A stretch of 26,926 nt of DNA, taken from Vulcanimicrobiota bacterium. GTDB taxonomy: Bacteria; Vulcanimicrobiota; Vulcanimicrobiia; Vulcanimicrobiales; Vulcanimicrobiaceae. Below, piece by piece: positions 6,245-7,832 of this stretch. The translations under genes were made by a program, and so were the position numbers. Each line of letters begins with the position of its first letter. Position 1 is the stretch's first letter. A model generated the notes under the pieces. It was not told where the DNA came from. It did not search any database and saw only the letters and a program-made list of their open reading frames with translations. The DNA lies in NCBI GenBank assembly GCA_003135555.1, contig PLCF01000072.1, positions 84,483 to 111,408 on the forward strand. Direction: 5' to 3'.

Positions 6245-6719
6245 CGAGCTCCAGGTGTCCTCCGGGTAGCGTGGCGACGCGGGCGCCGTCGATCCGCACC
6301 TTCACCGAGGTGATGCCGAGGTTCGGTTGCGTAAGTGTCCATACGAGCGCCTTGAACTCCGCCGACTCCGCGAACCCGCCTTGCGCCGAGGACGCGACGT
6401 CCTTAGAGATATCGACGTCTGCTATTGATCCCTGAACGTCGACGGCACGCACGCGCGTTCCCGCCGGAAACCGAATCGCGTCGGTCCCCGGGGGCGGGCC
6501 GGCGACGCACTGCGTGGCGGCGTAAAAGGCCACGCTGAGCCGGTCGCGCGCGTTCCCGAGGCTCACCCGCCACGGCACCAGCGTCGTTCCGTCGGCCTTT
6601 GCGTAGTAGACCGTGACCGCATCGCCGACGGCGTTCTGACGGTGTGTGGTGAACCACCATGCCGCAACGACCGCAGCCGCGAACAGCCCGACCAGCACCA
6701 AGGTGCGCGAGAATCGCAT
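6216..6719 (-). CDS. GerMN domain-containing membrane-anchored protein
   Basis: N-terminal TM helix. GP....FPAGTRV, LVWTLTQ, V.VRIDG and GHLEL..PL fit the GerMN pattern. Overlaps the amidase start by 29 nt. Confidence 0.85.
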   Translation of the reverse strand: MRFSRTLVLVGLFAAAVVAAWWFTTHRQNAVGDAVTVYYAKADGTTLVPWRVSLGNARDRLSVAFYAATQCVAGPPPGTDAIRFPAGTRVRAVDVQGSIADVDISKDVASSAQGGFAESAEFKALVWTLTQPNLGITSVKVRIDGARVATLPGGHLELDEPLSRSSF

Positions 6720-6743
6720 CTTGGATGGTCGCTATTCTGCGTG

Positions 6744-7037
6744 CTAGGCGTTACGCCCCTGACGGCGATAGGTGATCCGTCCGCGGGTGAGATCGTAGGG
6801 CGAGAGCTCCACGTCGACGTCGTCGCCGGGCGTGATGCGGATGCGGAAGCGGCGCAGCCGGCCGGCCAGGCTGGCCAGGATCGTGTGCCCGTTCTCGAGT
6901 TCCACCTTGAACGTCGAGCTGGGGAAGGTCTCGACGACGCGGCCGACCAGGCTCAGCGTGTCTTCTTTGACGACGGGGCTGAGCGGCTCGCGGCGCTTCT
7001 TGCCACCGCCGCCCTTGCGTCTGCGGGGAGGGGGAAT
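6744..7037 (-). CDS. infA: Translation initiation factor IF-1, probable non-canonical ATT start
   Basis: [68 protein letters not shown] is clearly IF-1. Product identity is confident; the start is inferred from GAAGGAG-5nt-ATT in frame. Confidence 0.88.
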
Positions 7038-7134
7038 GGTTACTCCTTCGATGATCGGGGCGGGGTGCGATTGGTCCGGGGGTTCGCGGCCGTAATCCGA
7101 TTCGCCCGCGACGGCGGGTCCCGGGGCGGCGCCG

Positions 7135-7160
7135 GGAACTTCCCCGAGGCGCTCCGGGTT
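7135..7160 (+). promoter_or_regulatory. Putative alternative (ECF-like) sigma promoter, GGAAC-N17-GGTT
   Basis: GGAAC ttccccgaggcgctccg GGTT atgggtggcgtc ATG(7173); same geometry as the motifs before dxs and the malonyl-CoA decarboxylase gene. Confidence 0.42.
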
Positions 7161-7172
7161 ATGGGTGGCGTC

Positions 7173-7256
7173 ATGCTCACAGGTGCTATCGTGTTCGGAA
7201 TGGTCGGCGTCGCAGCCGGGTTTACTTGGGACTACTTCGCTAGCCGAGGCAAGTAA
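7173..7256 (+). CDS. Putative small single-pass membrane protein (27 aa; 31 aa if started at ATG 7161)
   Basis: [27 protein letters not shown]: one hydrophobic helix with a basic tail. Promoter-like motif upstream and a hairpin at 7271-7287 downstream. Confidence 0.5.
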
Positions 7257-7270
7257 GCGCACGAGGCCCC

Positions 7271-7291
7271 GGCCGCGCCGCGCGGCCTCTT
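7271..7291 (+). terminator. Possible weak terminator hairpin after the small ORF
   Basis: GGCCGCG-ccg-CGCGGCC followed only by TCTT. Confidence 0.3.
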
Positions 7292-7335
7292 GACGCGGAC
7301 CTTACGTTCGCGATGGGCACCATTTGGGACAATCC

Positions 7336-7346
7336 TGTGTTAGAGT
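7336..7346 (+). promoter_or_regulatory. Extended -10 sigma70-type promoter of the zinc-ribbon gene
   Basis: TGTG-T-TAGAGT (TRTG plus TAnnnT); a hairpin begins 5 nt downstream, near the expected transcription start. Confidence 0.55.
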
Positions 7347-7351
7347 GAGCG

Positions 7352-7495
7352 AGCCGAACCGACGTAGGCGTCTTACGTTCGGCTGATAGTACGAGTCATG
7401 TCCCACGTGGTCTGGCGCTCAGGCGTTCTCCCGGTTCAGGTACATCGCACGTCTTCAAACCCCCCGACGCCGGAGTTCATATCGATGTACACTGA
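7352..7495 (+). promoter_or_regulatory. Structured 5' leader, candidate cis-regulatory RNA
   Basis: 5' hairpin AGCCGAAC (7352-7359) / GTTCGGCT (7377-7384). Helix TCAG-GTACATCG (7436-7447) / CGATGTAC-a-CTGA (7483-7495) covers the ATG. Confidence 0.5.
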
Positions 7496-7832
7496 CGAAA
7501 CCCTGAATTGCACCGACTGCAATGCCCCCTTCACGTTCTCAGCCGGAGAGCAAGAGTTCTTCGCCGCAAAGGGATTCACCAACAAGCCCAACCGTTGCCC
7601 GGATTGCCGTGCTGCTCGTAAGAGCCAGCGTGGCGGCAGCGGCGGCGGCGGCGGCGGCTCGTACGCCGGCGGCGGCTACGGCGGCGGCGGCGGCGCAAGC
7701 CGTCCGGCACGCGAGATGTTCCAAGCGACCTGCAGCGGATGCGGCAAAGTCGCGGAAGTCCCGTTCCAGCCCCGCGGCGACAAGCCGGTCTACTGCCGCG
7801 ACTGCTTCTCGCAGCGCCAATCGTATCGCTAA
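7485..7832 (+). CDS. Zinc-ribbon / CxxC-x17-CxxC domain protein with glycine-rich linker
   Basis: CTDC...FSAGEQEFF..KGF...P.RCPDCR, then a Gly/Tyr linker, then CSGC-x17-CRDC with VPFQP..DKPVYC. GGAG precedes ATG 7485. Confidence 0.9.
   Translation: MYTDETLNCTDCNAPFTFSAGEQEFFAAKGFTNKPNRCPDCRAARKSQRGGSGGGGGGSYAGGGYGGGGGASRPAREMFQATCSGCGKVAEVPFQPRGDKPVYCRDCFSQRQSYR

Follow-up and report, generated by a model that had tools for sequence, protein, structure and literature searches.

AUH start codons (AUU, AUC or AUA) are read by fMet-tRNA with a mismatch at the third position; IF3 destabilizes the resulting complexes and IF1 strengthens the effect, as a helper of IF3 discrimination and not as the main discriminator. 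By rejecting AUH complexes, IF3 represses its own AUU-started gene, a mechanism of textbook standing. We know of no start-codon-based autoregulation described for IF-1, and E. coli infA is not, to our knowledge, autoregulated. In the published record, IF1 and IF3 are named in abstracts as quality-control factors of the 30S pre-initiation complex, and the role of IF1 as a helper of IF3 discrimination also appears in the abstract of a 2026 bioRxiv preprint on IF1/IF2. The available passages of PMC5499595 name the infC triplets AUU or AUC as the target of IF3 autoregulation.

Weak start codons have also been described for infA. A functional UUG start is reported for chloroplast infA in Chlorella and tobacco (Hirose et al. 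1999, as cited in PMC9845219), and its change to AUG raised translation approximately 300-fold, according to the same citing passage. E. coli infA mRNAs have been engineered with AUU, AUA, GUG and UUG starts, and the AUU and AUA versions were translated in E. coli extracts (passages of PMC5499595). In the available part of PMC12874989, infA comes up solely in connection with codon usage and Ka/Ks. Full-text literature searches brought up no natural bacterial infA described as starting at AUU, AUA or AUC.

The infA locus analysed here can be set against each of these systems. With the AUU-, AUC- or AUA-started infC genes of E. coli and many other bacteria it shares an SD-led AUH start on an initiation-factor gene, conserved far and with the AUH codons interchanging, but the gene is infA and the start belongs to one paralogous lineage in one family. 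Like the chloroplast gene, as reported in the citing passage, it is a natural infA with a weaker-than-AUG start; unlike the organellar UUG, which is canonical and accepted by IF3, the AUH codon here is discriminated against. The E. coli AUU- and AUA-infA mRNAs demonstrate that bacterial ribosomes translate an AUH infA message, whereas they are laboratory constructs, and the passages available from PMC5499595 report no natural AUH infA. The classical infA of the map-infA-rpmJ operon, of the E. coli type with 72 aa, has in common with the present gene the TIGR00008 and PF01176 matches and the OB-fold core. It starts with ATG, GTG or TTG in what we call class B and in other families; by contrast, the genes that we call class A (both labels were coined in this analysis) are stand-alone, begin with AUH and have a basic extension some 20 residues long.

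The infA locus and its start region

The window, that is, the whole stretch of 26,926 nucleotides of DNA that was analysed, belongs to contig C50 of the source genome, that of a soil bacterium (G000); this genome is 84% complete in 98 contigs and has 67.9% G+C. The features around infA are collected in Table 1. The infA frame matches TIGR00008 (infA) with 96.4 bits against a cut-off of 61.15, at residues 99-166 of a 172-aa frame or from residue 24 when counted from ATT, and it matches the Pfam model PF01176 with 78.6 bits against a cut-off of 30.2. With a model matched above its curated cut-off over model positions 1-68 of 69, the product belongs to the IF-1 family. The classical traits of a map/rpmJ position and a length of about 72 aa are typical of this family and not defining; they are absent from this stand-alone gene, which encodes 97 aa with a 23-residue extension.

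Table 1. Features of the infA locus, in coordinates of the window.
Feature	Coordinates	Strand	Remarks
infA CDS	6744..7037	-	97 codons, ATT (7037-7035) to TAG (6746-6744); class A stand-alone IF-1
IF-1 OB-fold core	6747..6968	-	TIGR00008 model positions 1-68 of 69
Basic N-terminal extension	6969..7034	-	22 residues ahead of the IF-1 core; invariant Pro in 26/26
Proposed start codon ATT (AUU)	7035..7037	-	ATT in 24/26, ATC in 2/26 genus genomes
Divergent intergenic region, which must hold the infA promoter and a short leader	7038..7160	undefined	Unconserved in the genus except for the SD
Shine-Dalgarno GAAGGAG	7043..7049	-	5 nt (TAACC) from ATT
Small hydrophobic ORF, ~27-31 aa	7161..7256	+	Divergent from infA; conservation by tblastn
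GTG, rejected start	7260..7262	-	Sole in-frame canonical codon upstream of ATT

A preliminary description of this DNA had reported that no ATG, GTG or TTG occurs in frame from GTG 7262 to the IF-1 core, and our reading of the frame confirms this. GTG 7262 lies 75 codons ahead of ATT and opens the 172-aa frame, and the first canonical codon downstream of ATT is a GTG at codon 44, within the IF-1 core. The same description had placed a GAAGGAG motif at 7049-7043, 5 nt ahead of an in-frame ATT at 7037-7035, and both are found there: the minus strand reads ATC GAA GGA GTA ACC ATT CCC CCT CCC CGC AGA CGC AAG. A pyrimidine tract, CCCCCTCCCC (7034-7025), lies within the N-terminal extension. A promoter scan of 6600-7500 gave no match to the sigma-70 consensus, and the leader and start region gave no sign of unusual RNA structure (z = 0.12). 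In RNA-library runs, short contigs of relatives, 88-96% alike, fall on the infA body and are uninformative on its 5' end and expression; none of the RNA-run contigs of relatives bridges the infA start region.

Downstream, infA is followed by a GerMN-domain gene and then by an ORF that we take to be an amidase. On the opposite strand, tblastn locates the peptide of 7161-7256 next to infA throughout the genus loci, with 60-85% identity; it has no Pfam match and is likely an unannotated small membrane protein. Since this peptide is conserved, the DNA upstream of the SD is a divergent spacer followed by an opposite-strand gene, and not an arm of IF-1. Adjoining the locus, the plus-strand gene at 7398-7832 encodes two treble-clef zinc-finger domains (PF13451 and PF23477) joined by a Gly-rich linker, and is kept beside infA in most genus genomes. 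High contig depth was seen in the RNA-library runs X1 and X2 at 7362-7500, over the first ~100 bases of the zinc-finger gene and at the edge of the compared stretch.

Within the genus, the locus was read in 26 genomes (first in 23, then in three more). The preliminary description had suggested that orthologous loci be aligned for a conserved SD plus ATT, and such an arrangement is seen: an AAGGAG-like SD, a spacer of 5-6 nt and then ATT (24 genomes) or ATC (two) are present in 26/26, the motif and its spacer having been kept in 23/23 of the loci compared first. Directly after the start codon, all 26 genomes have CCN CCN CCN CGC AGA (Pro-Pro-Pro-Arg-Arg). Across the 26 genomes, pairwise nucleotide identity averages 29.5% at positions -75 to -16 and 58% over the SD and spacer (-15 to -1), then climbs to 79% in the first 15 codons and 91% in the first 60 codons of the core. 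The three Pro codons differ at the third position only, with the amino acids invariant in 26/26; codons 2-23 as a whole show synonymous Pro changes and conservative K/R swaps, and the 97-aa product is 87-100% identical among the genomes. This synonymous-only variation of the Pro codons places the beginning of protein-level selection exactly behind ATT and, with the invariant amino acids, argues that the stretch behind ATT is translated.

An SD followed by ATT is common by itself, with 440 in-frame sites of this kind in the long frames of the genome, so the significance of the infA site rests on its conservation and not on the motif. As for the codon, Ile is encoded in 1160 long ORFs of this genome by ATC in 93.1%, ATT in 5.5% and ATA in 1.5% of cases; because of this preference for ATC, a codon that merely encoded an internal Ile would not be expected as ATT in 24 of 26 genomes. 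On this comparative evidence, with SD plus ATT or ATC in 26/26 and conservation that begins after the codon, the earlier claim that infA is initiated at an AUU behind the SD is strongly supported, and we regard such initiation as very likely.

In the extension itself, the second Pro codon is CCT in 20 and CCA in six of the 26 genomes, each of which makes up 2.6% of the Pro codons of the genome. The Pro codons form a CCCCCUCC tract that is complementary to the SD; in most genus loci, short pairings (SD:UUCC or SD:CUCC, 4-5 bp) are predicted, which lack covariation. The tract could be an SD-masking element, a constraint on A/U-richness or an EF-P-dependent step.

Other positions for the start were weighed against these data. 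A start at GTG 7262, giving an IF-1 of 172 residues that carries a long arm at its N-terminus, would use the only in-frame canonical codon upstream and would agree with public gene calls of 112-165 aa for relatives, but the frame that it opens is not conserved (29.5% pairwise identity, with unrelated N-termini in the databases) and overlaps the conserved small protein encoded on the opposite strand at 7161-7256. In 6 of the 26 genomes an in-frame stop (TAA in five, TGA in one) lies four codons upstream of ATT, inside the SD-bearing stretch; upstream in-frame stops in relatives fall 4 to 72 codons before ATT, and in 11 of 23 genomes the interval from that stop to ATT is free of canonical starts. 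Contradicted by the unconserved frame, the upstream stops and the opposite-strand ORF, the GTG 7262 start was rejected as extremely improbable. Initiation might also occur further downstream, for example at CTG or GTG codons around 29-44, so that the stretch after ATT would be a leader and the protein would have about 55-70 residues; database calls of 70 and 79 aa (P0060 and P0059) are in line with this. Codons 2-23, however, evolve as coding sequence, and since residue 24 is where the match to the IF-1 family model sets in, any start beyond it cuts into the conserved core. Between ATT and the core, a canonical codon occurs in only one of 23 genomes (L013, ATG at codon 18); further downstream, canonical codons stand at positions that differ between genomes and are absent altogether from 7 of 23 loci, and relatives in other families have an ATG- or TTG-started extension of similar length. 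We therefore hold a downstream start to be very unlikely. Lastly, ATT might result from misassembly or from a private change of ATG, or the gene might be a decaying pseudogene, and the draft state of the genome (84% complete, 98 contigs) could speak for this reading. The same codon site is ATT or ATC in 26 independent genus genomes, among them a 1-contig, 99%-complete one, and the frame is intact, above the family cut-off, strongly conserved and the only IF-1 gene found. The sequencing error or private ATG mutation that the preliminary description had allowed for is thus contradicted, and the probability of this reading is close to nil.

If infA starts at AUU, public annotation of its relatives needs correction. 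Gene calls for relatives range from 70 to 165 aa, and their leaders upstream of IPPPRRR are mutually unrelated, as expected since gene finders must choose some ATG, GTG or TTG; judged from the aligned sequences, the N-terminus appears to be wrong in every public gene call examined for this IF-1. Among named database proteins the closest is P0047 (96% identity), which NCBI lists as a hypothetical protein of Vulcanimicrobium alpinum; other close matches carry the label Candidatus Eremiobacteraeota.

Class A genes in the family and loss of the operon copy

A search of the family covered 201 genomes and found IF-1 in 194 of them, over 78 genera; for the codons before the core, we compared second copies, outgroups and, from most of the listed genera, a single locus each. 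Class A has the core (V/T)FPS(T/S)TF.VELENGH and occurs only in this family, in 106 distinct loci that include the 26 of the genus. Class B, with the core PLPNAMFRVEL, is present in part of the genomes of this family and extends beyond it to the two others of its class and to further families of the phylum. In a quick maximum-likelihood tree of 77 columns, where many inner forks are unresolved, class A splits from the rest with an SH-aLRT of 89.

Starts were counted by position and stop bounds; a basic-tract rule, which left obvious ATA-GCN starts unclassified, was dropped. Among the 80 class A loci of other genera, 69 have ATA, ATC or ATT 16-27 codons before the core Lys, usually as ATA GCN or ATC GCN, and as ATT when CCN comes next. 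Stop-bounded loci, with an in-frame stop within 40 codons, number 47 of the 80, and 37 of these 47 are without any canonical start. Eleven of the 80 have no ATH at the site, ten of them having ATG, TTG or GTG and one (L054) GTA. In class B and out-of-class loci, by contrast, none of 41 is obligately non-canonical, and ATG, GTG or TTG stands before the core in all of them within the region searched. As 69/80 class A loci carry ATH against 0/41 obligately non-canonical loci elsewhere, the alignments indicate that the AUH start is an ancestral, conserved property of class A with few reversions. It is not indispensable, given the ten loci that have reverted to ATG, TTG or GTG and the one with GTA.

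In that last locus (L054, from G057), GTA occupies the homologous start, and neither an ATH nor a canonical codon occurs between the upstream stop and the core; this may be a true GTA start, an error or a copy in decay. In other genera, class A loci such as L042, L045, L070, L072, L075 and L092 have a TATGAY box, resembling a -10 element, approximately 30 nt upstream of the start, followed by TTTGAAAG.GGT/GAG and then by ATA or ATC GCN. The pattern suggests a dedicated promoter with a short leader in those genera; it was not seen upstream of infA in the present genus.

The two classes also differ in their surroundings. None of the 106 class A loci lies beside map or rpmJ, whereas class B is flanked by both genes in 27 of 33 loci, by map only in two and by neither in four. 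A second IF-1 match occurs in about a third of the family genomes (62/194, a hand count of matches, which do not equal copy numbers), so the first class A gene may have been an accessory copy.

The genus of the source genome has only class A. G000 has a single PF01176 match, with an unassembled second copy possible at 84% completeness, and a protein search gave a single IF-1 match in nearly all genus genomes, including the 1-contig, 99%-complete one; additional fragments in G013 come from a second copy resembling class A. The operon of G000 (C3, L217:1-2000) runs adk-map-rpmJ-rpsM, where map and rpmJ are only 40 bases apart and infA is missing. The classical infA is thus deleted from its usual operon place in this genus and, with the operon copy absent and a single IF-1 match, the ATT-started gene has to supply the IF-1 of the cell. 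The IF-1 core of the genus sits on a long branch inside class A (0.87 changes per column, SH-aLRT 99). By this branch length, IF-1 appears to have evolved fast in this genus, where only the class A copy was found.

AUH starts in infC and elsewhere in the genome

The infC frame of G000 also lacks a canonical start: GGAGAG is followed after six bases by ATA GCA CGA CCG, with which the conserved N-terminus ARPLRINE begins. The infC codon is ATA in 19/19 genus loci and in 28/28 loci from other genera of the family, 27 of them in the aligned position and the remaining one earlier by a codon; it is ATC in 4/4 loci from another family of the order and ATT in 7/7 from another family of the class. The class A infA start (GTC ATA GCC CGC) resembles the infC context (GTC ATA GCA CGA), a likeness to which we give little weight because both proteins begin with Ala-Arg. 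Some of these counts draw on three unpublished genomes, which contribute L026 (infA) and L183 (infC), both from G036, and the infC loci L207 (G061) and L209 (G059). L026 is one of seven outgroup infA loci of the class, and L183 is one of the seven ATT infC loci. With the unpublished genomes left out, the counts become 6/6 for outgroup infA, 6/6 for ATT infC and 26/26 for infC of other genera, and the conclusions are unchanged.

Starts of this type are not a general habit of the genome. A crude, relaxed screen, which required an SD-like motif, a boundary in coding potential and no canonical codon nearby, passed ATG at a rate of 0.30, GTG at 0.18 and TTG at 0.15. The rates were 0.029 for ATA (9/306), 0.029 for ATC (71/2455) and 0.018 for ATT (8/440), in a similar range to non-start codons such as TTC (0.031), AAG (0.028) and CTC (0.027). 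The relaxed screen recovered both infA and infC. Two stricter screens missed infA: the first, which allowed no canonical codon upstream in frame, was too strict, and the second, which found 89 ATG, 58 GTG and 21 TTG against 1 ATT and 1 ATA, missed infC as well. All three codon-usage screens are crude and of low sensitivity. Because ATH passes at the same rates as background codons, ATH starts are not a bulk habit; they are rare exceptions in this genome and do not reflect a relaxed code.

A few further candidates were seen, named here from a reading of their N-terminal motifs. An mreB-like gene has ATC with a stop 6 codons upstream and IDIGIDLGTANVLVY (G000 C54, plus strand, index 46594), a recR-like gene has ATC ATC behind TAAGGGAG with a stop 3 codons upstream (G000 C62, minus strand, index 26537), and an ABC ATPase has ATA behind GGAGG (G000 C73, plus strand, index 22124). 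These three are likely ATH-started genes, and their presence suggests that the lineage tolerates ATH starts outside initiation-factor genes. The genome encodes an ordinary initiator tRNA-fMet(CAU), and a tRNA search of the genome found no initiator-like tRNA matching AUH.

A possible start-codon-fidelity feedback on infA

The reading that we favour starts from what is observed, namely the conserved start position, the history of the paralogues and the parallel with infC, and adds initiation with fMet at the AUU and a control of this step by the initiation factors. The AAGGAG SD would position the ribosome, and the ordinary initiator tRNA, with its CAU anticodon, would read AUU at 7037-7035 to give a 97-residue IF-1 with a basic N-terminal extension. 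Class A, to which this translocated paralogue belongs, arose within this family, of the Eremiobacterota type, beside a map-infA-rpmJ operon copy and has had an AUH start since its origin; the genus lost the operon copy, leaving the AUU gene to supply all IF-1. Since IF3, assisted by IF1, rejects AUH initiation complexes, the yield of IF-1 should respond inversely to the supply of the two factors, falling when IF3 or IF1 is in excess over ribosomes (30S) and rising when they are scarce. With infC at AUA and infA at AUU, both factors would come under one start-codon-fidelity feedback, and the output of IF-1 would be coupled to IF3 and to IF-1 itself. As IF1 is only a helper in discrimination, any loop on infA would have to operate via IF3, alone or jointly with IF1. 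The strong SD would fit a design that is efficient when initiation is allowed, and not merely weak.

An AUH codon read by the standard tRNA is what IF3 and IF1 discriminate against, and infC also starts at AUA, which makes a feedback on infA a reasonable inference. Given the AUU start, we judge an infC-like feedback to be plausible, at slightly better than an even call. For the reading as a whole, which joins the AUU start and the class A history with a fidelity feedback by IF3 and IF1 shared with infC, and in which it is the feedback that we infer, our confidence is moderate. A wider version of it is more tentative: a regulated AUH paralogue, under one feedback with the AUA-started infC, may have replaced a constitutive operon copy and may now set the balance of IF1, IF3 and ribosomes, and the Pro-Pro-Pro stretch could add a further layer dependent on EF-P or structure.

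The main competitor accepts the AUU start as real but supposes that the weak codon only sets a constitutive level, or is near-neutral and compensated by the SD, with no feedback. It draws on the ten of 80 class A loci elsewhere that use ATG, TTG or GTG, apparently without harm, and on the few unrelated genes in this genome that also look ATH-started, and it agrees with the fact that E. coli infA is not known to us as an autoregulated gene. The setting of expression levels is one accepted reason for rare start codons, according to the passages available from PMC5499595, and would suit the many genomes in which a canonical operon copy stands beside class A. Against it, most of the genera sampled have retained AUH, with ATA, ATC and ATT replacing one another, and because ATG is one mutation away and AUH is nevertheless kept, ATG appears to be selected against. 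The use of the same AUH device by infC in the same genomes likewise argues against mere level-setting. Moreover, any AUH start used with the standard initiator tRNA responds to the level of IF3, so some dependence would be hard to avoid. On balance we think level-setting alone unlikely, though far from negligible, and retain the fidelity feedback as our preferred reading.

For annotation, the consequence is that pipelines which allow ATT, ATA or ATC starts for infC only will mis-call infA across a large, mostly uncultured family. The database names include a cultured member of the lineage (the source of P0047), which makes a bench test of the prediction possible. If the feedback operates as proposed, the entire IF-1 supply of the cell would be set by initiation proofreading itself. 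An AUH-started infA next to an AUA-started infC would then offer a test system for whether two factors are balanced via the same fidelity checkpoint, and it also asks what follows when a regulated paralogue becomes the only copy.
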